Positions 3,515 through 43,999 of a stretch of 64,000 nucleotides of DNA are shown in pieces. A program made the position numbers and the translations under genes. This DNA is from Dictyostelium discoideum (lineage: Eukaryota), in assembly GCA_000004695.1 (NCBI GenBank), contig CM000153.2, forward strand, positions 5,088,001 through 5,152,000, in the 5' to 3' direction. Positions within the stretch are counted from its first letter, which is position 1. Every line of letters starts with the position of its first letter. The notes under the pieces are model-generated. The model searched no databases and was not told the DNA's origin. It saw only the letters and a program-made list of their open reading frames with translations.

Positions 3515-19567
<16,053 letters not shown>

Positions 19568-19748
19568 AGTTTGGGTAATAAAATAAAAAAATTAAAAAAA
19601 TTAAAAAAAAAATAAAAAAAAAAAAAAATCTTGCTTTTGAAAGATATTTCCGTTAAACCCAAAAAAAAAAAAAAAAAAAAAAAAAAAAACAAGTACTTTT
19701 TTTTTTGTTTTTTCACCAGTAAAAGCAATATAAAAAAAAAAAAAAAAG

Positions 19749-20879
19749 ATGAGATTATTTTATCTTATTTTTTTTTTAATTGTTTCTACAATTATTAATG
19801 GTTGTAATTCTCAAATTCAAAAAAATGATTGTATTTATTTTTAGTTAAACTATTTTTTTTTTTTTTTTAATGACTTTTATTTTTTGTTACTAACATTTTT
19901 TTTTTTTTTTTTTATTTAAAAAAAAGATAATTGTTTAAATAAATTGATTGTTAAAATTGCAAATCTTTCATTATATAAATTAAATAGTACATCTAAACAA
20001 TATGATTATTGTGGAACAAAAAATAATAACGTAATAAATTGTAATTCAAATGGAAGAATAACAGATATTCAACTAACTCATTTTGTAAACAAAGCAACTA
20101 ATTTAATTTCAGCAAATGATTATTATTGTTTTCCTTTTTTAAAATCAATGTAAGTAAATTTTAAAATTTATTTTTTAAAATTATTACTCTTTTAAATATT
20201 AGTATTTTTTTTTTACTGTTTATTTAGAGGTGTAGATAGTTTTAGAATTGAGAAAAATTTTATATATGGTCCTTTTCCTGATACTTTATATAAAAGAATT
20301 TTTTTATTAAATGGGGATTTATTATCAGTATTTGATGTTGACACTGAAATTGGATTTAATAATACTATTAAAAGAACAGAAATTGATACTTTTAGACTTG
20401 TTGGTGGTGTTGCTACATCATTAAACACTACAGTTTATATGTCAACAATTTCACATTTTAAAAATATTGAATTTATATATGGTACTGCAGTAATTACAAA
20501 TAAAACCAACTTTATATTTGAAAATGATTTAAATGAAAATAAAAAATCATCATTTAAAAAAATTACTTCCTATTGCTCAAATATACCACCATTAAGTTAT
20601 AATAATGGAACTATTAATTTCGTGTACGTATAAACTAATTTAACATATTTATTTAAATATATTTTTAGTTTTAATTAATATTTTTTTTTTTTATTTTTAT
20701 TTAAGTGAACTCACATTTTTACCAAGTTTCGATAAAGAATCAGTTTCAAATTTTTCAAGTTATTCAAATGTTTTGGATATTTATTTAAATTCATGGGACC
20801 CGAATCAAGTTTTCCCATTTCCACTAGGTCTTGGTAATATTCCACCAAATAATAAATTAATTTATATGTAGGTTTTTAG

Positions 20880-20916
<37 letters not shown>

Positions 20917-21049
20917 ATCTAAATCAATTAAATTTTTTTTTTTTAGATACATTAACTATTTAATTGATAGCCCACCTCATTTAATTGACCTATCAAACTT
21001 AGACTCAAACGATAAAACCGATTTATATTCTTATAATACATTGTATGTA

Positions 21050-21082
<33 letters not shown>

Positions 21083-22311
21083 TAACTATTTATAATTTTG
21101 GAAATTAGAACATTGAATAATCCAGGTAATCTTTTCAATTTTAATGGTAAATTCCCATTCTCTTCTCTTCATAAAAATTTAGTGATTTTGTAAATATTTA
21201 TAGATTAATTATTATTGTTTTTTTAAATTTTTTTTTTTTTTTTTTATTAACATTTATAAATTAATTATATTATTTTAGTGATTTTAATGATGGTAATTTT
21301 TCAGAATTACCAAAATTAGAAGATGTTTTTAAAGAGGAAATAGCTGTAATTAATTTGAATAATAATAGTATTGGAGGAAATATTCAAACCACATTGGATT
21401 TTAATAAACTTCCAAAGTTAGCAACACTTAATTTAAGAAATAATAGATTAACAGGATCAATTGACGAAAGTTGGTGTAGAATTAATTTTGATATTAGTTA
21501 TAATCTTATTGGTGGTGAAGCTCCTAGTTGTATGGTTTGTCATTTTCAACAAAATGATTTATCTATTCGTGGAATAAATTTTACTAATTGGAATCCAAAA
21601 CCACCATGCACTTCAATTATTCCAAATTTAATGTACGATAATTCAACAAAACTATTATTAATATATGGTCAAGATATTGGCGTTGCAAGAACAAATTTTA
21701 AAATAGAAAACTCATATAACTATTCACCATATTGCAGTATGCCTGGTTATCCAGATATTAGAAATAGACAATTTTGTTTTAAATACATTGACACTGATGA
21801 ACCAAATCCATTTTCATTTAATATTACATACCCAAAATTACCACCAGGTTCAAGAAAAACATTTGAATTGGCTGCTTATAATATGTTTTTACCATTGGTT
21901 AATAAGGTTACAATGAACTCCAAAGAATCATTAACAATTGCTGGTAGATATTTCGCATACAACAAAACAGTAATTAATGTTCAAGTTGATGGCAAAATCT
22001 GTAATATTGAATCATGTGATTTTAATGAAATTAAATGTAAATTTTCAAATGATAATAACAATAATATTAATGGTTTAAATGTATTTGTACAAATTATGAA
22101 TGTTTCATCCCAATTTTGTATTTCCAAATGTAATGCAGCTGATAATTATGAATGTGAATTTAAATTTGAAAGATGTAATTGTAGTGAAGGATGGGAAGGT
22201 GGTGACTGTAGTATTAAAATTGAGAACAAATTATCAAATTCAAATAGAAACAATATTTTAAATACTACTATAATATTTATAGTTTTAATTTTAATACTAT
22301 CATCATTTTAA
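19749..22311 (+). CDS. Secreted or membrane-anchored LRR + EGF-like receptor-like protein, paralog A (~690 aa). Seven exons: approx join(19749..19830,19927..20149,20228..20623,20706..20867,20947..21042,21109..21189,21279..22311)
   Basis: Seen in sequence: signal peptide 'MRLFYLILFFLIVSTIING'. Plant-type LRRs ('LNLRNNRLTGSIDESWC', 'ISYNLIGGEAP'). C-terminal EGF-like Cys modules ('CNCSEGWEGGDC'). A C-terminal hydrophobic tail ('ILNTTIIFIVLILILSSF'). Donors are GTATTT, GTAAGT, GTACGT, GTAGGT, GTATGT and GTAAAT, all followed by AG acceptors. The phase is continuous through ORF-track pieces 19944.., 20439.. and 21355... Boundaries are ±1-2 nt. Confidence 0.7.
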
Positions 22312-22467
22312 TTTAAAAAAAAAAATAAAAAATGTGGTTTTAAGACAAAATTCTTAAAATATATTTATTTATTATAAAAAAAACATTGTTTTTTTTATAA
22401 TAAAATTTTTTTTTTTCAAACGATAAAACTATGAAAAAAAAATAAAAAATAAAAATAGTTTTTTTTT

Positions 22468-22500
<33 letters not shown>

Positions 22501-22524
22501 CCAAACGAAAAATTAGTAAAGATA

Positions 22525-23688
22525 ATGGGAAGATATTTCGTTTTTTTATTAGTTTTTATTTTGTTTTTTAATGGTTTTAATTCGCAAATTCATAAAGATG
22601 ATTGTATTTATATTTTTATTTTTAACCTTCAATAACTTTTATACATATACACACAACTAACATTTTAATTTTTTTTTTTTTTTTGTTTTTTTTTATTTTT
22701 TTTAAAAAAAAAAAAGATAGTTGTTTGAATAAATTAGCAGTAAAAATTTTAAATCTATCATTATATAGTTTGAATAGTACAACTAAACAATATAATTTTT
22801 GTAGTAAAGTAAATAAAAATGAAATAAATTGTAATTCAGATGGGAGAATAACAGGAATTCAAGTAGTTCATTTCAAAAAAATAAATTTACTTTCGCCAAA
22901 TGATTTTATTTGTTTTCCTTTTTTAAAATCAATGTAAGGCAATTTTAAAAAAGATATATTTATTTAAAAATATTAATTTTTTTTTTATTAATTAATTTGT
23001 TTTATTATTAATTTATTTAGAGGTGTAGAAAGTTTTGTAATTTCAAAAAATTTTTTATATGGTCCTTTTCCTGATTCTCTCGATGAAAGAGTTTTTTTAT
23101 TAAATGGGGATTTATTATCAATATTTGATGTTGACACTGAAATTGGATTTAATAATACTATTAAAAGAACAGAAATTGATATTTTAAGAGTTAATGGTGG
23201 TGTAGCTACATCATTGAACACTACAGTTTATATGTCAACAATTTCACATTTTAAAAATATTGAATTTATATATGGCACTGCAGCAATTACAAATAAAACC
23301 AACTTTATAATTGAAAATGATTTAAATGAAAATAAAAAATCATCATTCAAAGATTTCACTTCCTATTGTTCAAATATACCACCATTAAGTTATAATAACG
23401 GTACAATTGATTTTGTGTATGTATAAAGCTATTATATAATTTAACATTATATTTATTAAAATATATTTTTAATTTTAATTAATATTTTTTTTTTTTTTTC
23501 CCCCAAGTGAACTCACATTTTTACCAAGTTTCGATAAAGAATCAGTTTCAAATTTTTCAAGTTATTCAAATGTTTTGGATATTTATTTATACTCATGGGA
23601 CCCGAATCAAGTTTTCCCATTTCCATTAGGTCTTAGTAATATTCCACCAGGAAATAAATTAATTTATTTGTAGGTTTTTTGTTTTATT

Positions 23689-23719
<31 letters not shown>

Positions 23720-23840
23720 CTAACCCAAAACAAAACTTTTTTAGATACACAAGCTATTTAATCGATAGCCCACCTCATTTAATTGACCTATCAAACTTGG
23801 ACTCAGATGCTAAGATTCCATATAATTTTAATACATTGTA

Positions 23841-23872
<32 letters not shown>

Positions 23873-25395
23873 AAAAAATAAAAAAGAGAAACATTAATTA
23901 ACTATTTATAATTTTAAAAATTAGAACCATAGATAGTCCAGGTAATCTTTTCAATTTTAATGGTAAATTCCCATTCTCCTCCTTTTATAAAAATTTAGAA
24001 CATTTGTAAATATTTAAAAATAATATTATTTATTATTATTACTAATAACATTATTATATTAATTTATTTTTATTAATATTCTTTTTTTTTAAAAATTATT
24101 CTTTTAGTGCTCTTAATGATGGTAATTTTTCAGAATTACCAAAATTAGAAGATGTTTTTAAAGAGAAAATAACTGTAATTAATTTGAATAATAATAGTAT
24201 TGGAGGAAACGTTCAAACCACATTGGATTTTGGTAAACTTCCAAATTTAAAGGTACTTAAATTAAAAAATAATAAATTAACAGGATCAATTGATGAAAGT
24301 TGGTGTAGAGTTAACTTTGATATTAGTAATAATCTTATTAGTGGTGAAGCTCCTGGTTGTGTTATTTGTCATGTTCCTGATCATCATCCACGTATTCGTG
24401 GAATTAATTTTACCAATTGGGATCCAAAACCACCATGCACTTCAATTATTCCAAATTTAATGTACGATAATTCTTCTGACCTACTCTTACTCTATGGTCA
24501 AGATATTGGCTTCTCGCCTATGGATATGTATATACTAGATATTTCATATAAATTCTCATTTTCCTGTGATATGCCTGGTTATCCTGAAATTTATAATACT
24601 CAATTCTGTTTAAAATACATTAGCACTGATGGACCAAATCCATATTCATTTAATATCACATACCAACACTTACCACCAGGATCAAAAACAACATTTGAAT
24701 TGGCAGCTTATAATATGTTTTTACCATTAGTTAATACCGCTATATTGGATTATTCCAATGAATCATTAACAATTGCTGGTAGATATTTCTCATACAATAA
24801 GACAGTAATTAATATTCAAGTTAATGGTAAAACCTGTAATATTGAATCATGTGATTTTAATGAAATTAAATGTAATTTTTCAAATGATAATAACAATAAT
24901 AGTAATTTTAATGGTTCAAATGTATTTGTACAAATTATGAATGTTTCATCGGAAATTTGCATTTCCAAATGTAATGATGATGTCCCTTATGAATGTGAAT
25001 TTAAATTTGAAAGATGTAATTGTAGTGAAGGATGGGAAGGTGACAATTGTGAAACTCTTAAAAGATGTCCAAATGATTGTAGTGGTGCAGGTATTTGTAA
25101 TCATATCACTGGAATATGTTTATGTAATTCTGGTAGAATACAAGATGATTGTAGTGTTTTAGGATTTGAATGTAAGTCAGATTGTTTAAATGGTTCAAAA
25201 TGTAATTATGCAATTGGTAAATGTGATTGTATACTTGGATGGGAAGGTGATGATTGCAGTTCAGAATTATCATCATCAGAACCATCATCATCATCAGAAC
25301 TATCATCATCAGAACCATCAAAATCAAACAAAATAATACTGCTCAGTGTTCTATTACCATCACTTGCATTGTTGGGTTTAATATTATCATTTTAA
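22525..25395 (+). CDS. LRR + EGF-like receptor-like protein, paralog B (771 aa, tandem duplicate of A with extra EGF modules). Seven exons: join(22525..22603,22717..22933,23021..23416,23508..23669,23745..23837,23925..24005,24108..25395)
   Basis: Seen in sequence: the exon count matches paralog A. The intron phases are identical, 1,2,2,2,2,2. The intron positions and the unusual GTAAAT donor are the same. Protein identity to A is about 65-75%. Exon 7 adds 'CPNDCSGAGICNHITGICLCNSG...CKSDCLNGSKCNYAIGKCDCILGWEGDDC' EGF repeats, a Ser-rich stalk and a hydrophobic tail 'ILLSVLLPSLALLGLILSF'. The summed exon length is 2316 = 772 codons. Confidence 0.75.
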
Positions 25396-25519
25396 TGCAA
25401 AAACAATAATAAAAATAAATATAGTGTAAAACTAAATAAATAAATAAAAAAAACAATTATTTTTTATTATTATTATTATTATTATTACTATTTATTTTTA
25501 TAATTTTATTTTTTATTAT

Positions 25520-26044: not shown

Positions 26045-26975
26045 ATGTCATTTTTAAATAAATCAAATAATATTCCAAACTATATACAAAAAGAAATAAT
26101 TAAATTGATTTGTTATCAATGTAATAGAGTGAATAAAAAATTATGTGAATTTGATTTATATGAAGAAGAAGAAATTAAATATAAATCAATAAATAAAACT
26201 ATATTATCAATTTGTTTAACATCATGGTTCTGGTTTAAAACTTGTTCAACCTATATGAATGTAATAATTAATTTTAATAAATCAATTGATATTATAAATA
26301 ATAATAATAATAATAATAATAATTATTTTAATAATATTATTTATAATAATATAATAAATAATAATAATAATAAATATTCAATGTTAAAAATTGAAAATTT
26401 AACAACACTGGTATTAGAATCATCAATTATAAAAAGTATGAATTTCATTGAAAGATTAAATAAATTTTTAAATTTACAAGTTATAAAAACAAATTTAAAA
26501 AAGATATTAATTCATATAAATTATAGTAATAACAATAGTCAAAATAATCAATTGATATCAATGATTGGTAAAATTGATTTTCCGTTTATTAGAATTAGTA
26601 ATTTCGAATTTGATGTGTCAATAACCTCAATGACGACATCATTCATTCTACCAATTAATATTAAAAAGATTAAAAGTATTGGCGTATTAAAGAACTATTC
26701 ACCATCAATGATCATTTCAAATCTTAGAAATCTATCATTTAAAGAGATTTACATTTGTAATTATAATAATAAATTCCCATTTAAAGAACTATCAATTATG
26801 AATAAACTTTCATCGGTTCAATATTATGATACTCATAAAACTTCTATTAAAATTGATGACCTTTATTATATACTAAAATCAAGTCCAAATTTACAATTAT
26901 TATCATTTTATATTTGTATTGATGATTTAATTTATCAATTATCTTGTCCAAAACATAAACCAAAATCATGTCAAT

Positions 26976-27022
<47 letters not shown>

Positions 27023-27649
27023 TCATTATCAACAACCACTACCACTTCCACCTCCACCTCCACCACTTCATCAACTACAACTACTACAACAATTTCAAAT
27101 ACAACAAATAATGAATTTTCATTTTATTATTATTGGAGAATGGTTTGTAAATTAATTAAAAATCATAAGAAATTAAAAAGTTTATTTATTTATTCCTTAT
27201 GTAAAAATGGTGAAAATTGTGGTTTAAATTATTTAAATAAATTAAAAATGTCAAATCATTTCGTTAATCAATTTGGTGGTATGATATCAAAGAATAAATC
27301 AATAAAGAAATTAAATTTAGACGGTTTTAATTCACCAGATTTATTAAAACGTATAATTACCAATAATAATACTATCAATTCAATTCAATTTCAATTCCCA
27401 AATAATGGTAATAATATTTTAACAAATAATCAAAAATTAGAATATATTAATATTTTTGATAAATTATTAAATAATAATAATTATGATAATGATGACAGTG
27501 GATCACAACAACCACAATTACAACAACCACAACAACAACCACAACAACTACAACATTCTATAAAGAAATTCAAATTAATTGAAAATATAAGTAATCAAGT
27601 TGATTCAAAGGTTAAAACCGAAAAGGTTTTATTTTCTTTTGAAAAGTAA
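26045..27649 (+). CDS. Hypothetical Asn/Thr-rich protein (534 aa), possibly LRR-like. No confident family assignment.
   Basis: Seen in sequence: the long ORF runs through (AAT)n and Ser/Thr tracts. Weak leucine-rich periodicity ('LSFKEIYICNYNNKFPFKELSIMNKLSSVQYYD'). No recognisable catalytic motif. Confidence 0.45.
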
Positions 27650-31923: not shown

Positions 31924-34501
31924 ATGACAGATTTTATTAGAGGTAAAACTCAACATAAAGTTATCTCAGAGAAATTAGAAGATCAAGAAATTGTTAGTAC
32001 AAAGAGAATTACACCAAAGAGAGTTAAAAATGATGATAAAGATAAAAAAGTTAACAAGAAACAAAAAACTTCAAATCAATTAGCACCAATTATCACTGAA
32101 GAAGGTAATGGTATAGCAGATTCTGATGAAGATGATGATAATAATGATAACAATGACGAAAAAAAAGTTTCAGCTGAAGAAGAAAAAGATAGAAACCTTT
32201 TTGCATCTGCTTATAATAGTTTAAAGGGTAAAAAGAAAGCTAAATTAGTTTCAAAAATTGATAAACTTACACCATCTCAATTAAAAGAATATATGAATGA
32301 ACCAACAACTCAATTAAATAAAAAAGAAGAAGCTGATGCTAAAAAGTTATTACCTTTCTTAAAAAAGAATATTCCAAAATCTGCATGTAGATTACTTAAA
32401 AAAGTAAGTATTATATGTAATTATATAATTATATTAATTTAATAATATTAATTTTTTTTTTTTTTTTTTTTTAAGGATTTACATACTGGTATGGTAGTAT
32501 TAGCAACATTTGAACAAGTTACAGAAATGGATATTACAATTAGTTTACCATTTGGATTGAAAGGATATGTTAAATTTAATGAAATTTCAGATTCATTTAC
32601 AGAATGGATGAAAGAAACTTTAAAGAGAGAAGATGAAAATGAGAAATCAACAAACTTTAGAAAGATGAAGATTATATCTGACCAAGTTAGAAAAATGTTT
32701 TACAAAGGTCAAATGTTAAAATGTGCAATCGTAGGTTTAACCGATCATCATACTATTGAAGGTCTTCATTGCACACTTAGACCAGAGTTGGTTAATGTTG
32801 GTTCATCAATTGATACATTCTCAGAGGATATGACAATTCATGGTTGTATTGAGTCAATTCAAGATAAAGGTTATATCGTTTCATTTGGTTCAAAAGATTA
32901 CAATGGTTTCTTGGAATTTTCAAACACTTGTTACTATTACCCCGATCAATCTTCTGATGACCAAAATCAACTTTACATTGGTCAACCAATTGAATCTTTA
33001 ATTCAATCAATTGATAAATCAACTAAAACTTTTAAATTAACAATTTCTCATCCATTAGTTTCACGTTCAACTGTAAAGTATTTAAATTTAAATTTAATTA
33101 CAATTATTTTATTAATTTATTAATTTATTTTATTTTATTTTATTTTTTTTAAAAAAAAAAAAGATTAAAAACTCTGAAACTATTACAATGGAATCAATTA
33201 AAGCAGGTATGTTAGTTGAAACCAAAGTTTTAAGAGTTTTAAGTAATGGTTTACATTTAGGATTTTTAGATTTCTTTGCAGGTGATATTTTCATTTTACA
33301 TTCACAAAATCCAATTGAAACCTATAAAGAGAATCAAGGTGTTAAAGCAAGAATATTATTTGTTGATCAAGTTCACAAGAGAATTGGTTTATCAACATTG
33401 GGTCATGTTTTAGGTTTTAAACCATATCCATTTGGTACAACCAAACCAGGTCAATATGTTGAAAGTGGTAAATTAACAATTGAAAGAATTGAACCATTAG
33501 AAATGATTGTCACAACTGAATCAACAGTGGTACAATCTAATCCAATGAAGGCACCATTACTATTAAGAGGTTATATTCATATTGAAGAGTTGGAGAGTGG
33601 TGTAAACGATTTAACCAAAGCATCAAATCAATTTAAAAAGACAGAACCACTCGAAAAGAGATGTAGAGTTAAACATTTAGATCATTTAGATGGTATGGTA
33701 ACTTATACAGCTCGTACTAGAGAATTGGAGAAGAAATTCTACTCTTACAATGATTTATCTTGTGGTATGGTCGTTCAAGGTGTAATTAGATATGTTCGTG
33801 CCGATTCATTAGAGGTTGAATTGGCCACCTCAATTCATGGTGTAGTCGCTAGACATCATATGGCCGATACTAATATCACCGATCCTTTGGAATTCTTTAA
33901 AGTTGGTGCAACTGTAAAAGTACGTATTATAAATGTTGAGCCAGATAAGAAACGTCTTCAATTAACTCTCAAGAAATCCTTAATCTACTCAGAGTATCCA
34001 ATCATTACCGATAAAAACACTACCCCAATTGGTACTATCTCTCATGGTATCATCACTAAAACCACTAGATTCCTCGTTTTCGTCTCTTTTTACAATAATA
34101 GTTTTGGTGTTGTTGAAGCTCAAAATCTTTCAAATAGTAAAATTGAATCCGTTCAAAAACAATTCCCTGTTGGTCGTACAGTTTTAGCTAAAACTTTATT
34201 CTCTGAAAGTAGTAAATCTCAACCTGGTTTACCTTTGACTTTAGTAATTGATGATGATGATTTTAATTCACAACCACAACCAAATTCAAATAAAAAATCA
34301 AATAATAGTAATAATAAGAAAGAAAATAAAAAAGTGGAAAATAAAAAAGTAGAAGAGGAAAAAGTTGAAGAAGAAGGAAAAGAAGAAGAAGAAAAAGAAA
34401 ATAAAGAAGAAAAAAAACAAGAACAACAAAAAGAAGAAAAAAAACAAAGTACAAAAAATAAGAAAATAGAAACAAAATCAAAAAAAGTAATTAAAAAATA
34501 A
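31924..34501 (+). CDS. Rrp5/PDCD11-like rRNA-processing protein with about six S1 RNA-binding repeats and a K/E-rich tail, but no HAT/TPR half (804 aa). Three exons: join(31924..32403,32476..33072,33164..34501)
   Basis: Seen in sequence: a GTAAGT donor at 32404 and a 'ttttaag' acceptor give '...CRLLKK|DLHTGMVVLATFEQVTEMDITISLPFGLKGYVKFNEIS', the Rrp5 first-S1 signature. A GTAAAG donor at 33073 and an 'aaaaag' acceptor at 33163 are in frame with ORF 33188... Further S1 cores are present: 'HGCIESIQDKGYIVSFG', 'GMLVETKVLRVLSNGLHLGF', 'RGYIHIEEL', 'GMVVQGVIRYVRADSLEVELATSIHGVVARHHM' and 'HGIITKTTRFLVFVSFYNNSFGVVEAQ'. The exon lengths sum to 805 codons. Confidence 0.7.
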
Positions 34502-37246: not shown

Positions 37247-38362
37247 ATGAAAAAAGATATTATTTTAGTACTTTTAATAGTATTACATTTATTCTTTTTT
37301 GTTTCAATATTCGCAATTTCACCAAATTCAGAGATAAAACCACAAACAATAGACACCCAATCTTCAACTTTAACAACTTCCTCTACAACAACAACAACAA
37401 CCTCTTCACCAACAACAACCCCATTGGACATAAAACAACAACAATTAAAACAAAATATTATAGATAGTAATAATAATAATAAGATTAAAGAAGAAGAAAA
37501 AGAAAAATCAAAGAATGTTTATGTTACATTTGCAGATAATGCAGAATATTTAAAAGGTATAGTAGCATTAAGAATGTCAATGATAAATACAAAGTGCAAT
37601 TATGGATTGATTGTATTTGTCACTAAACAAGTTGAACAACAAGATAGGGAACCATTACAATTGTTAGATTGTGATGTTAGAGAGATTGAAATGGTTGATA
37701 TACCAAAAGAAGTGAGTGTCCAAATCGACAGATGGAGACCTGCTTTCACAAAGTTCAGAGCATGGCAATTGGTGGAGTATGAGCGTGTCATTTGGCTAGA
37801 TTCCGATATGTTGTTGTTGAAATCGTTGGATCACTTATTCGATTTGGTTGATATCGGCAACCCGAAATTACTATATGCTGCAATTGACGCAGATGCGAAT
37901 AGTTGTGTGTTCAATAGCGACCGTTTGAAATTAATAAATTCAGGTATAATGCTATTGTCACCATCGATTGATGTTTATAATCTGTTGATTGATGGAATGG
38001 TGGTAGTTAGTAAACTACCAAACCAGAGCACTGTAAACGACCAAGATGTGATCAATACCACTTTGCCACACTGGAGATCCTTGTCATATCCAGAGTATGG
38101 CGTTCAAATAACACATTGTGAATGCACGAGTGAGCCAAGACTTTGGAATTTTACAAATACTTATTTCTTACATTTCACTGCCGGTCTAAAAGAATTACCA
38201 AAACCATGGTCACTACTAAAGAAATCTCAAAATGAAGCTAAAGATATCTTTAAACAAATGCCAACTTGTATTGAACAAATTTATTTAAATTGGATTAATA
38301 CATATAAAGAAGCTTTAGATTTTATTGAAAATAAATTAAATTTAGTTAATTTAGTAAAATAA
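37247..38362 (+). CDS. Family GT8 glycosyltransferase (glycogenin/galactinol-synthase-like), type II membrane topology, 371 aa
   Basis: Seen in sequence: N-terminal signal-anchor 'ILVLLIVLHLFFFVSIFAI'. A Ser/Thr-rich stem. GT8 motifs 'YVTFADNAEYLKGIVAL', the DxD motif 'IWLDSDMLLL', and 'GIMLLSPS', the GT8 'G(x)LVxxP' region. Confidence 0.85.
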   Translation: MKKDIILVLLIVLHLFFFVSIFAISPNSEIKPQTIDTQSSTLTTSSTTTTTTSSPTTTPLDIKQQQLKQNIIDSNNNNKIKEEEKEKSKNVYVTFADNAEYLKGIVALRMSMINTKCNYGLIVFVTKQVEQQDREPLQLLDCDVREIEMVDIPKEVSVQIDRWRPAFTKFRAWQLVEYERVIWLDSDMLLLKSLDHLFDLVDIGNPKLLYAAIDADANSCVFNSDRLKLINSGIMLLSPSIDVYNLLIDGMVVVSKLPNQSTVNDQDVINTTLPHWRSLSYPEYGVQITHCECTSEPRLWNFTNTYFLHFTAGLKELPKPWSLLKKSQNEAKDIFKQMPTCIEQIYLNWINTYKEALDFIENKLNLVNLVK

Positions 38363-38977: not shown

Positions 38978-41900
38978 ATGGATAAAACTATAGAAATTGA
39001 AAAATTAATTAAAATATTAATTGAAAAACAAAAAGAAGAAGAGATTGATGTATCTGAATTATCAGAATCAATTAAAAAAGTTTCTAAATTTATTTTACAA
39101 AATAATTATCAAGATATTGAGAATCAAAAAGATGAAATTACCAATCAAGAAATTAGTAGATGGGTAACATCAGTTTGTACATTAAAACAAAGTATTGAAA
39201 TGATTGCTAAAAAAGTTGGAATAATGGGAGACTATTTACCAACCATTAGATTTGGTGTATCATGGATTGAAAAAGGTAGACCAATTCTAATTAGATTATT
39301 ATCAATTGAAAGTACACCAATGAAAACCATTAAAGAATTCATTCGTATGGCTAAAATATCAAGATTGGAATTGAATTCTAAAATACCCGATGATACTGAA
39401 GATGTTGAAAAATTACTCACATCTGATAGAGATCACTTTATCAATATTGAATCAATCATTCATAGAGTCATCAACTATGGTAAAAAAAATATGATTGAAC
39501 AAATTGATACATTACATTCAATGGGTGCAAGTTTGGAAGTTGTTCAATTCCAAGGATTTAATAAAAAAACACCATTGGATTGTTCGGTTGATATCGAGAA
39601 TTTAGAATTATTTAAATATTTAATAAACAAAGGTGCAGGTGAAAAAGCATTACATAATAATGTGAATTCATTCTATAAGAAACAACCTCAAGAGATTAAA
39701 GCAACTCTTAGACCATTCATAAAGAAACTTTTCTTAATCAATGCAAAAATTGCATGGAGATTAGCATTTGATGAAATTTTTACAACTAAACCAATGGCAA
39801 CTTCTGGTGGTAATAGATTATGTAAAACTGCAACAATGAATGATAGATATATTACACCAACAATTTATGAAATGATTTTTAATAATGATGGTACCCCAAG
39901 GAATAACAACGAGACCAATAGTACTGCCATTGGTGGTAGAGCCAGAGCCAGGCCAATAATGGAATCAAATGGTAATTTTTTAATTGCAAAATTTCAACCA
40001 CAATTCCCTGCAATGGAATTAATTACAATTAAACTCACTCAAAATTTATTTGGTGAAGCTGCACCATTTTCAGAGTTAATTAAAATTGATAACTATCCAA
40101 TTATTATCACTCAAAAAGTTGAGGGTGATATATTATCTGATTTAATTTCATCAACCAATCCAATGGATCATAATAAACTTTTAAACCTTGACACTTCATC
40201 AATGTCAAAATTGTTTGTATCGGAAATGATAATTAATTCTGCCAAAGGTTCATTCAATGATTTCATAGTATCACCAATTTTAAATCAAGATATCACTGAT
40301 GAAACACCTCAAAAATATAAATTGGTTAGAATTGAAAATGAACTATCATTTGTTCCATCATCACCAACACTATTGACTACATCAGCTTTACTATTTCTTG
40401 GTGGTAAAAATTCAGCATCAGTCAATTCATGTTTGTACCTTTTAAATGAAATGAATGATCAAGTTCATCAAGATGTAATTGACCGTTTCATTGGATTAGA
40501 TGTCACAACATTCCTAACCGATTGGTTATTTAGTGTATTAAATACTCATAATACATCATTAGATTTATTCGATCATAATCATGATTCAATTCAACATTTT
40601 AATATTGAAAATGATAAATCTTATGTTGGTGTATCATTACCATATGGCCAAATTCAATCACTTTATTCAAAATTGAATAGAATTAAAAATGTTCTCTCAA
40701 AGAAAAGATATTCTGGTAATTTAACTCATTGGCAATTATTAGAAATTATTGAACCATCAATTGCAAATATTTATAGACCATTTTTACCAAATTATCAACC
40801 ACCACCACCATCACAACTACCATCACAAACATTTAAAATGATTAAAGAGAAATTTATAGAATTTCAAAATAAATGTCATACTGAAACATTAACTTCTTCA
40901 TTCATTTATGAATCAAGAGGTATTGTAGTTAAAACTCAAAAACAACTCGAAATTGAAAGAAAAGAGTTATTAGTACTTGAAAAGAAAATTGAAGAAATAA
41001 AGAATTTAAAAAAAGAAAGAGATCCAATAACTGAAAGAAATTTTAAAAAATTAAATGAAAGAAAGAAAATTCTTGAAGATTCATTAACTGATGAAATTCA
41101 AGAGTTTGCTTCAATTAAAGAGGAAGTGAATCAACATGAACAATTACTTGAAAAGATTGAAAATGAATCACCAATTGAAACTATTTTAAGTGGTTTAAAG
41201 AAACAAGCAACATCACCATCACCATTATCAACCACAACTGGTGTTCAATGGGAAACTTTAATTGATAAAATCGATTTTTCAAAAGCAAATATCAATTCAT
41301 CATCATCATCAGATAATCATCAAATGATTTTAGATATTATTGGTTCAATTAAAGATTTACGTTTTTATCGTATTAAAAATAGTAATAAATTAACAATTGA
41401 CAGTTTTAGATCAAGTACATTACAATCAATAAATTCAATTAAGAAATTGTATATTACAAATTGTCAAACTTTATTAAACTTTCAAAATTCATCATTATTT
41501 GGTGGAAAATCATCATTGGTAATGACAGCATTAACTCATTTCAAAGTTGATCAATGTAAGAAATTAACAACCATTAAATTGGATGCACCAAATTTAGTAT
41601 CATTCTCTTCAACCAATTGTTCAGAATTGAGTGAATGGGATTTAAAAGCACCAAAATTAAGAAAATTAAAAATTCAAGCAAATAAAATCTCTACTCAAAC
41701 AATGTCAACTTTTGAAAAGAATTTCCCATTATTGAGTTATTTAGATATTAGTAGAATTGTTGCACCATCTTCAAAGAATGTTTTAACAATACTAGAACTA
41801 TCTCATTGGAAGAATTTAGAAACTTTAATTGCTGATGGAGTTGTTTCAATTGAAAAGATTTCAATCACAAATCAACTAAAAAAATTATCAACATTAAACT

Positions 41901-43388
41901 TTAAAGGTTGTTCATCATTGAAAGAGATTCAATCAAACAGTATTACAAATAAATCATCATCACCATCACCAGTTTGTCCAATCTTACAAAGATTAGATTT
42001 AACTGATACTTTAATACCAATCGAAAGACATTCACAATTACTTCATTCATTGAATAATATGAAAAAGGTTGTAATTTGTGGTTTAAATGATATTCTTTCA
42101 TTTAGTTCATCTATTAATTTATTTGATGAAATTGTAAATGGTGTTGTAGTTAAATGTGCAACTAGAAATAAGGTTGAAGAGGTTATCCATATGGATCAAT
42201 TATTCCAATATAATTATTCAATTGAACCAACAATTCCTCCAAGATTATTTCAACAAACAAACTCATTGGTATTGTTAATGGATTCAAGTAATATTCATGA
42301 TTCTGCTAGATTATTTGAAAAGTATTGTCATCATTTGAAAATCGGTGGTAATTCACAAAAAATTAATAAACCAAATAAAATTTGTTTAGTCTATCTTGCA
42401 AATGGTAATGGTGGTATAACAACTCAAATCGATAGAGATACAAATAAATCTTGTAAATTATTCATTAAAGATTTCATTAAAAGTGATGTTTGTGCAAATC
42501 TTGAAGTTCATTACATTAGAATCAAAGGTGTCAATAAGAAATATAAACGTGCTGCAATTAGAGAAACCATTACACTATTATTAAACACTGATTCTTTCTC
42601 TAGTGTTGTTGATAATAATAATAATGGAATTAATCATAAAGCTGCTCAAAAAGAAATTAATCAATCTTATCAAATCAAAATTCAAAAAGAGTTGGAATCA
42701 TTTTATGATAATTTAATTAGTAAAGATTTAACTGTAGTTGAAATTTTAAATCAATTAGAACATTCAAACTATGTTGAATTTGCCAACTCACTTAAGAATC
42801 ATGTTGCAACCATTCAATTATTCAATAGTTTAATGAGTGATTCATTATCATGTTTCTTTAGAAATTTAAAGAAATTTTATTTAATTGCAAAGATTGAACA
42901 TAATCCAATCAATGATTTTGATGATTCAACCACTAGCGATAACTATAGTTCCTATGGTAGTGTTTCATATAAAACTGGTATTAAAGGTACAATCAATTAC
43001 TCAACTGAAAATAATGATAATACTGAAATCTTAACTTGGTTAGATGATTATTTCTCAAAGGATGTTGATACTCTCTTTAGATGTAGTACCAAAGATGAAC
43101 CAATCAATTTAAATTTCAACTCTACAAAATTACTTTGTCGTTGTATTGAATCTGGTTGTATTCCTGCTTTCTATTGGTATCTCTCAAGAAATTCAAAACT
43201 TTTAGAACAACGTTTCAATGAAGATGAATCAAACTTTTATTTTGATTCAAGTCCAATTACAAGTTTAGTACAATATGATTCAATTGATACTATTAAATGG
43301 TTAAATTTTAATAATTATTTAAATAATAAAAATAATAATAATAATAATAATAATAATTTAAATAGTAATAATAATAATAATAATAATG

Positions 43389-43468
<80 letters not shown>

Positions 43469-43999
43469 TTTAAATCAAAAATATTAAATGCTGGATTACT
43501 TAAAGCATGTCAACTAGGTAAAATTGAAATCTTCAAACTTTTATTAACAGATGAATATGGTGCAAATTATTTACATCGTGATGATGATTCACTCTTATCA
43601 CCAATTCATATGGCTGCTCAAGGTGGTCATGTTGGAATCATGAGATTATTATTTGGACGTCATAGTAAAGATAATGCAAACTCATCAGAATTAATGAATT
43701 CAAAAGATCTACAAGGAAATTCTCCATTACATTATGCAGTTCAAAATTGTAGAACCTCTGTTGTTGAATATCTTTTAAATGAAAAAGGTGATGACATCAA
43801 TAAACAAAATATTTCTGGCGAAACTCCAATCTTCCAATTACTCACTGAAATTGAAAAAGATCCAACAAATAATAGTTTAGACGCACTCTTTCATGAATTA
43901 AAAGATTTCTATAATGCTAAACTTGAAATCACTGTTTATAAAAATCCTTTTGATATTCTAAAAAAATATGCTTCCATTAAAGAAGAAATTCAACATTAA
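38978..43999 (+). CDS. Large (1,673 aa) ankyrin-repeat and cysteine-containing LRR protein with a coiled-coil segment. Central domain of unknown, possibly atypical-kinase-like, fold.
   Basis: Seen in sequence: C-terminal ankyrin repeats ('SPIHMAAQGGHVGIMRLLF', 'GNSPLHYAVQNCRTSVVEYLLNE', 'GETPIFQLL'). An F-box/LRR-like CC-LRR run ('KKLYITNCQTLLNF', 'DQCKKLTTIKLDAPNLVSFSSTNCSELSEW', 'NFKGCSSLKEIQ'). A K/E-rich coiled coil lies around 40.9-41.2 kb. A poly-N tract lies at 43.3 kb. Confidence 0.65.

Follow-up and report, generated by a model that had tools for sequence, protein, structure and literature searches.

ComC and other described surface proteins

ComC ("communication mutant C") is an epidermal growth factor (EGF)-like domain-containing protein, and it is described as having EGF domains, a signal sequence plus a transmembrane segment, and a distribution restricted to group 4; aberrant aggregation is reported for comC mutants. 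The Pfam families LRR_ComC (PF24141), Beta-sand_ComC_1st (PF24142) and Beta-sand_ComC_2nd (PF24143) were built on it. ComC reportedly acts non-cell-autonomously in a pathway with lagC/tgrC1; a full-text literature search for comC together with lagC returned nothing. Here we compare ComC with the products of two genes of Dictyostelium discoideum AX4, DDB_G0286933 (gene A) and DDB_G0286963 (gene B), which lie head-to-tail on the + strand of chromosome 4, inside the 64,000-nucleotide stretch of DNA that was analysed (assembly GCA_000004695.1, contig CM000153.2, positions 5,088,001 to 5,152,000; hereafter the window, whose numbering is used throughout). They are very probably two adjacent, intact and previously annotated genes for ComC-like surface glycoproteins, related to each other by tandem duplication, at a locus that is otherwise ordinary. 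A, B and their domain family are present in public annotation, and both genes are in the AX4 reference. Proteins A and B share with ComC an LRR_ComC domain followed by EGF modules, with putative beta-sandwiches between them, a signal peptide with a membrane anchor, and confinement to the group-4 dictyostelids. They differ from it in being much shorter, in carrying only one (A) or three (B) EGF modules, in having no cytoplasmic tail in AX4, and in a first beta-sandwich that scores below the Pfam cut-off. The resemblance was established through the Pfam families, not through a direct alignment to ComC.

Parts of this organization recur in other described proteins. DDB_G0286881 and DDB_G0286211 are paralogous EGF-like domain-containing proteins encoded on the same chromosome as A and B. 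The former is 45–47% identical to B over 92–99% of the length and has a homologous Ser-rich stalk and membrane segment, but unlike A and B it carries eight EGF modules and has kept a cytoplasmic tail, which ends in ...KKRKNEDQYKYHIKLK before the stop. The plant leucine-rich repeat (LRR) receptors (BRL1/BRL3, PSKR and the receptor-like proteins, RLPs) are approached by the last LRRs of A and B, which match plant RLPs with an E-value of 1e-10 over 9–18% of the protein. A and B are unlike these receptors in having no kinase domain, LRRNT_2 cap or island domain, and the plant receptors are without the beta-sandwich or EGF region of A and B. Membership among the plant LRR-RLPs or receptor-like kinases was rejected, because generic LRR models stay below threshold, LRRNT_2 is absent and the similarity covers only that small part of the query; the likeness is one of repeat type, not of membership. 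The Tgr allorecognition proteins (TgrB1/TgrC1) are comparable in that they, too, are single-pass glycoproteins of the cell surface with relevance to development; they have beta-sandwiches of the IPT/TIG type and are encoded by clustered paralogous genes. They have no LRR_ComC domain, which together with TIG matches below cut-off in A and B led to the rejection of Tgr-family membership, and the A/B locus is without excess divergence over its neighbouring gene.

Gene models and tandem duplication

The spliced models were assembled by hand and checked by translation. Gene A extends over 2563 bp (19749-22311) and gene B over 2871 bp (22525-25395); each consists of seven exons, and the spliced translations, of 690 and 771 amino acids (aa) respectively, contain no internal stops (Table 1). 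Protein A is identical to XP_637471.1 / Q54L32. Protein B corresponds to XP_637472.1 / Q54L31 except for one skipped exon, the fifth, which is discussed below, and the 771-aa model is identical to KAM9941807.1.

The six introns are 66–113 nt long with GT..AG borders and interrupt homologous codons in A and B, with phases 1,2,2,2,2,2 in each gene. When all introns were scored against all others, the homologous A/B introns gave the best mutual score in five of the six rows. The two proteins are 75% identical, and their exons 75–95% identical at the DNA level. The copies are thus adjacent and on the same strand, with homologous exons and introns and common intron positions and phases, as is expected of tandem duplicates. 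This bears out the first-pass annotation of the window, which had proposed the tandem duplication of a seven-exon gene from the six shared intron positions and phases. The donors that it had singled out are as described, GTAAAT in intron 6 of both genes and GTACGT (A) or GTATGT (B) in intron 3, and the two antisense open reading frames (ORFs) that it had listed do exist, as by-products of the duplicated exon 3. Its claim that the promoters were duplicated as well could not be upheld: the spacers upstream of A and B (19569-19748 and 22312-22524) align locally with a score of 42, which is not above background. When 216 unrelated AT-rich segments of the window were used for comparison, 18% (A spacer) and 27% (B spacer) scored at least as high, and any resemblance is one of low complexity. 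A similarity between these spacers had appeared under a mononucleotide shuffle (z 6.6) and was dropped once real AT-rich spacers served as controls. The G+C content of the window is about 18–28%; its genes are separated by long runs of A/T, and its introns are short and AT-rich.

As judged from intron positions, the tandem duplication took place in a gene that already had seven exons, since a paralogue with 47% identity, the DDB_G0286881 orthologue of D. cf. discoideum (L003), has introns at the same six positions and in the same phases. This gene is located about 80 kb from the A-B pair on the same contig, and not in tandem with it.

Domain organization and family

LRR_ComC matches both proteins far above the Pfam cut-off of 27 (80.0 and 80.1 bits, E 3e-22, profile positions 1-287/288). 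Beta-sand_ComC_2nd passes its cut-off in B only (29.1 vs 27), as does EGF_2 (31.9 vs 22.1), the Pfam EGF matches in A reaching only E-values of 0.3–0.4. The stretch from the beta-sandwiches to the membrane anchor contains the six-Cys EGF pattern, in a single copy in A and in three copies in B. In the same Pfam scan of A and B, LRR_1, LRR_4 and LRR_8 all remained below their cut-offs and LRRNT_2 was not found. The LRR and EGF ectodomain of the first-pass annotation is hence supported, and the profile search, in which a lack of LRR matches was to refute it, did return an LRR match in A and B, through LRR_ComC, with the generic LRR models sub-threshold. Each protein has an N-terminal hydrophobic signal, 17–20 N-glycosylation sequons and a hydrophobic C-terminus. 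The hydrophobic end of B had been noted in the first-pass annotation, as had its Ser-rich stalk (SSELSSSEPSSSSELSSSEPSKSNK). In the proposed layout, a cleavable signal peptide and an N-cap containing Cys are followed by an irregular LRR solenoid of about 12 turns, two IPT-like beta-sandwiches, the EGF modules and a C-terminal hydrophobic anchor.

The last LRR turns of A and B are of the plant type (LxxLxLxxNxLtGsI), and most of the solenoid is irregular. In the AlphaFold (AF2) model of B, the solenoid has about 12 LRR turns with a predicted local distance difference test (pLDDT) score of 70–89, and is followed by beta-rich domains at aa 440-627 (pLDDT 53–76). The best Protein Data Bank matches found with Foldseek are the plant LRR-receptor ectodomains of BRL3, BRL1, BRL2 and PSKR, in agreement with the plant-type likeness claimed earlier, and plexin/MET IPT domains were matched as well. 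Of 1.84 billion representatives scanned with phmmer, 187 matched at E <= 1e-3, and 48 of these at E <= 1e-10. The source species was looked up for ten of the listed matches. Nine of these ten cover most of the query and all nine come from Dictyostelium of group 4 (D. discoideum, D. cf. discoideum, D. citrinum, D. firmibasis and D. purpureum); the tenth, like others that match only residues about 366-434, is an LRR-only match to the plant-type repeat. A profile search with the family alignment returned mostly plant LRR proteins, and ComC by name was not among its matches.

Conservation of the pair and selection

The A-B pair was found behind the same HECT gene in two further assemblies, GCA_054859385.1 (D. 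discoideum, L001) and GCA_054859205.1 (D. cf. discoideum, L002). In both, A and B keep all their splice sites and an intact reading frame, with lengths of 691 and 706 aa for A and of 781 and 907 aa for B, respectively. The model of the D. cf. discoideum B protein was obtained by homology transfer of the splice sites, which gave exactly 907 aa; filtered splice enumeration gave none. This protein (L002 12836-16049) owes its length to simple-repeat expansion, with an unchanged EGF count: the last strand of beta-sandwich 2 is preceded by a run of about 24 Asn, and the Ser-rich stalk has about 110 residues, compared to 25 in AX4. Even for the conserved HECT gene, the synonymous divergence (dS) of both assemblies from AX4 is about 0.1. 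Such a value is far above what is usual within D. discoideum and suggests that the two assemblies represent lineages distinct from AX4, or cryptic species.

All dS values and ratios of nonsynonymous to synonymous divergence (dN/dS) given here are Nei-Gojobori estimates. Between orthologues, whole-gene dN/dS is 0.25–0.33 for A and 0.38–0.44 for B. The LRR parts are the most constrained (0.1–0.4 in most comparisons, although single segments of B reach 0.63–0.79). Beta-sandwich 1 lies near 0.5, and a nominal ratio of 1 or more is confined to the EGF parts of B (1.15–1.54), where it comes from 1–2 synonymous differences. These ratios indicate that both copies are under purifying selection. The A/B locus is, by the same measure, not unusually polymorphic, since its dS between AX4 and the other assemblies (0.08–0.17) is in the same range as that of the adjacent HECT gene (0.105–0.109), and the other assemblies are simply diverged lineages; hyper-polymorphism was rejected on account of this match. 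The diversifying evolution put forward in the first-pass annotation is not supported by these values. In the pairwise alignment and per-domain dN/dS comparison that it had proposed, A and B proved closely related, and a ratio of at least 1 was limited to the B EGF parts and their one or two synonymous changes.

Between the paralogues A and B, dN/dS is 0.5–0.7 and dS 0.22–0.30 overall, varying from about 0.05 to 0.56 along the gene. Quartet site patterns over the whole gene favour orthology at 171 sites and grouping by strain at 16. The by-strain sites cluster in alignment columns 521-600, corresponding to beta-sandwich 2, of the D. cf. discoideum pair, with 7 by-strain vs 2 orthology sites. 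In these columns of the six-sequence alignment (L002 about 11990-12230 and 14830-15070), the p-distance between A and B is 0.03–0.05, vs 0.05–0.12 to the AX4 orthologues, and the two D. cf. discoideum proteins are near-identical in beta-sandwich 2, with 1 of 56 residues differing in the stretch inspected. This pattern suggests a lineage-specific gene-conversion tract in the D. cf. discoideum pair.

Origin of the difference in EGF modules

Mature B contains 12 more Cys residues than A, which is exactly the number in two six-Cys modules (aa 663-726), where the first-pass annotation had counted about three extra ones. It had also taken these modules to be a gain in B. The EGF2-3 pair of B, however, shares 67% identity with the first EGF pair of DDB_G0286881, an older paralogue to which the stalk and membrane segment of B also align, and a loss of EGF2-3 in A would therefore account for the difference, the extra modules of B being ancestral. 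One EGF module is found in all three A orthologues and three modules in all three B orthologues, so that A would have lost its pair before the three lineages split. The 13-mer GGATGGGAAGGTG ends both EGF1 and EGF3 of B, at a distance of 207 nt (69 codons), and is present in a single copy in A, where the codons that follow it (...DCS) resemble the EGF3 junction of B and not the EGF1 junction. An in-frame deletion between the GGATGGGAAGGTG repeats is a plausible origin for A. For the ancestor, we propose a type I membrane protein that had pairs of EGF modules, a stalk rich in Ser, a membrane segment and, as its short tail, a sequence of the type ...KY.IKLK. Following the duplication, A would have lost the 69 codons of EGF2-3, plausibly by recombination between the two copies of the 13-mer, and its stalk too, and occasional gene conversion may have kept parts of A and B similar. 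The polarity of the EGF change, as loss in A instead of gain in B, is a useful by-product of the comparison.

The opposite history, according to which B gained its EGF modules and stalk after the duplication and the pair forms a recognition or adhesion locus under diversifying selection, is very improbable. It would fit the greater length of B, which exceeds A by two EGF modules and the Ser-rich stalk, the lengths of Ser-stalk and poly-Asn runs that vary among B orthologues (771, 781 and 907 aa), and the nominal dN/dS of the B EGF parts. The number of EGF modules varies only between the paralogues, however, and the modules of B, its stalk and its membrane segment are older than the duplication by comparison with DDB_G0286881. 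The EGF ratio comes from only one or two synonymous differences, and with orthologue dN/dS of 0.25–0.44 and a dS like that of the HECT gene there is no excess polymorphism of the tgrB1/tgrC1 type. Hardly credible, and the least probable of the histories weighed here, is the decay or loss of function of one copy, most likely the shortened A. The disappearance of two EGF modules, stalk and tail from A could be read in this way, as could a paralogue dN/dS above that between orthologues, but A has an intact frame of 690–706 aa and six canonical splice sites in three diverged lineages, and its orthologue dN/dS is lower than that of B. Pseudogenization of A was rejected on these grounds.

C-termini and membrane anchoring

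In AX4 neither A nor B has any cytoplasmic residues. B stops at ...SF in both AX4 and GCA_054859385.1, and every A copy ends at the homologous ...SSF. The B protein of D. cf. discoideum reads on through the full membrane segment and a 19-residue tail to ...LVLKKFYNRKNNIKNKYNIKLK, and its end (...LGLISFLVLKKFYNRKNNIKNKYNIKLK) resembles that of DDB_G0286881 (...KKRKNEDQYKYHIKLK). The premature stop of B apparently arose from the loss of one T in a T-run and a G-to-A change, and the cytoplasmic tail of B would have been lost recently. Judged by eye, both AX4 proteins end in a layout like that of glycosylphosphatidylinositol (GPI) signals, SSS-EPSKSNK-IILLSVLLPSLALLGLILSF in B and SNS-NRNNILNTT-IIFIVLILILSSF in A, with small residues (SSS and SNS, respectively) 7–9 positions upstream of the hydrophobic stretch.

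In the proposed sequence of events, a premature stop would have removed the tail, from A in every lineage and from B in D. discoideum proper, leaving a tail-less end that resembles a GPI-attachment signal. It is only a tentative idea, and a rather unlikely one, that stops at the same codon (...SF) in this manner turned A and B, once tailed type I receptors, into surface proteins that are tail-less or GPI-anchored, possibly signalling-dead "decoy" or adhesion-only versions of a ComC-like receptor. A and B may have reached the common end point by evolving in parallel, or through gene conversion at the 3' end, with A as the donor. If the idea is true, the tail-less A and B would amount to a natural experiment, on a small scale, in the retuning of cell-cell communication receptors by social amoebae. 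The alternative that the AX4 proteins are ordinary single-pass membrane proteins, held by their terminal 13–20 hydrophobic residues without GPI processing, falls only a little short of an even chance. In its favour, both the tailed orthologue and DDB_G0286881 have a membrane segment homologous to the hydrophobic stretch of B, and 20 hydrophobic residues suffice to cross a membrane; on the other side, the stretch is followed by neither a positively charged stop-transfer flank nor any cytoplasmic residue, and the small residues upstream are placed as in GPI signals, a similarity of layout.

Exon 5 of gene B

The AX4 reference protein of DDB_G0286963 has 740 aa and is without exactly the 31 residues encoded by exon 5, YTSYLIDSPPHLIDLSNLDSDAKIPYNFNTL. 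This exon has canonical AG/GT borders that are kept in the three assemblies, and it is also present in A and in the more distant paralogue; newer annotations and all paralogues have it. Its dN/dS is 0.08–0.33 in comparisons with more than one synonymous difference, and 0.75–0.78 in two comparisons of AX4 with GCA_054859385.1, each of which contains a single synonymous difference. Given the conserved borders, the presence in paralogues and the low dN/dS, the 740-aa model is most likely a misprediction. The reading frame is kept if exon 5 of B is skipped, and an in-frame alternative isoform without it may exist. The correction to the AX4 model of DDB_G0286963, which misses a conserved 31-codon exon, is a further by-product of this study.

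Possible function

From their architecture and the comparison with ComC, the likeliest role of A and B, with about an even chance, is that of surface proteins for ligand binding or for adhesion and communication, which by the same analogy would probably act during multicellular development. Several points weigh against our reading of the locus. At the level of domains, Beta-sand_ComC_1st is below the Pfam cut-off (18.0 vs 27) and matched in A only, TIG matches are likewise below theirs (17.8–18.4 vs 20.9), and the AF2 model of B is of moderate quality, with a mean pLDDT of 66 and values under 50 in the EGF and stalk regions. The functional analogy with ComC derives from domain-family membership, GPI anchoring from the layout of the sequence, and the gene-conversion signal from few sites, which makes the evidence for it limited. 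A full-text literature search for both gene identifiers returned no expression, localization or mutant data. The findings are of little importance beyond annotation housekeeping, and for studies of ComC-like receptors in Dictyostelium development A and B provide a pair of close variants with different EGF numbers and different anchoring.

Feature coordinates and neighbouring genes

The features of the A/B locus are collected in Table 1.

Table 1 Features of genes A and B and of the sequences around them, in window coordinates.
Feature	Coordinates	Strand	Description
A exon 1	19749..19830	+	Start codon, predicted signal peptide; spliced model 690 aa
A intron 1	19831-19926	+	Phase 1
A exon 2	19927..20149	+	Cys-containing N-cap, LRR domain begins
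A exon 3	20228..20623	+	LRR; 91% nucleotide identity to B exon 3
A exon 4	20706..20867	+	LRR; 95% nucleotide identity to B exon 4
A exon 5	20947..21042	+	LRR
A exon 6	21109..21189	+	LRR; followed by GTAAAT donor
A exon 7	21279..22311	+	Last LRRs, two beta-sandwiches, single EGF (22117-22209), short linker, hydrophobic C-terminus (22267-22308), stop
A-B spacer	22312..22524		213 bp, A/T-rich, from stop of A to start of B; 3' end of A, promoter and leader of B
B exon 1	22525..22603	+	Start codon, predicted signal peptide; 771-aa model
B exon 2	22717..22933	+	Spliced model
B exon 3	23021..23416	+	LRR
B exon 4	23508..23669	+	LRR
B exon 5	23745..23837	+	LRR, 31 codons; left out of the 740-aa AX4 reference model
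B exon 6	23925..24005	+	LRR; followed by GTAAAT donor
B exon 7	24108..25395	+	Last LRRs, beta-sandwiches (about 24370-24954), EGF1 (24958-25050), EGF2-3 (25066-25257)
B exon 7, end	25258-25329 and 25330-25392	+	Ser-rich stalk and hydrophobic C-terminus, respectively, then stop
B tail remnant	25396..25443	+	In frame, CKNNNKNKYSVKLNK and stop, directly past the apparent premature stop; from comparison with the D. cf. discoideum orthologue
Antisense ORF in A exon 3	20213..20428	-	71 aa; by-product, not a gene
Antisense ORF in B exon 3 and intron 2	22988..23221	-	77 aa; by-product, not a gene

Directly upstream of A, an uninterrupted ORF of 4884 codons (4913-19567, + strand) ends in a HECT ubiquitin-ligase domain (E 3e-64). 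It is part of a protein of about 5260–5280 aa in the other assemblies, with a dN/dS of 0.14–0.16 against the two lineages. The next gene downstream of B is an Asn-rich ORF of 534 codons (26045-27649, + strand) with no Pfam match; its gene models disagree between assemblies, those of the counterparts in the other two having 411 and 560 aa. Further along the + strand, S1/RRP5 RNA-binding domains, a domain of glycosyltransferase family 8 and C-terminal ankyrin repeats are found in the ORFs at 33188-34501, 37247-38362 and 38978-43999, which are unrelated to A and B.

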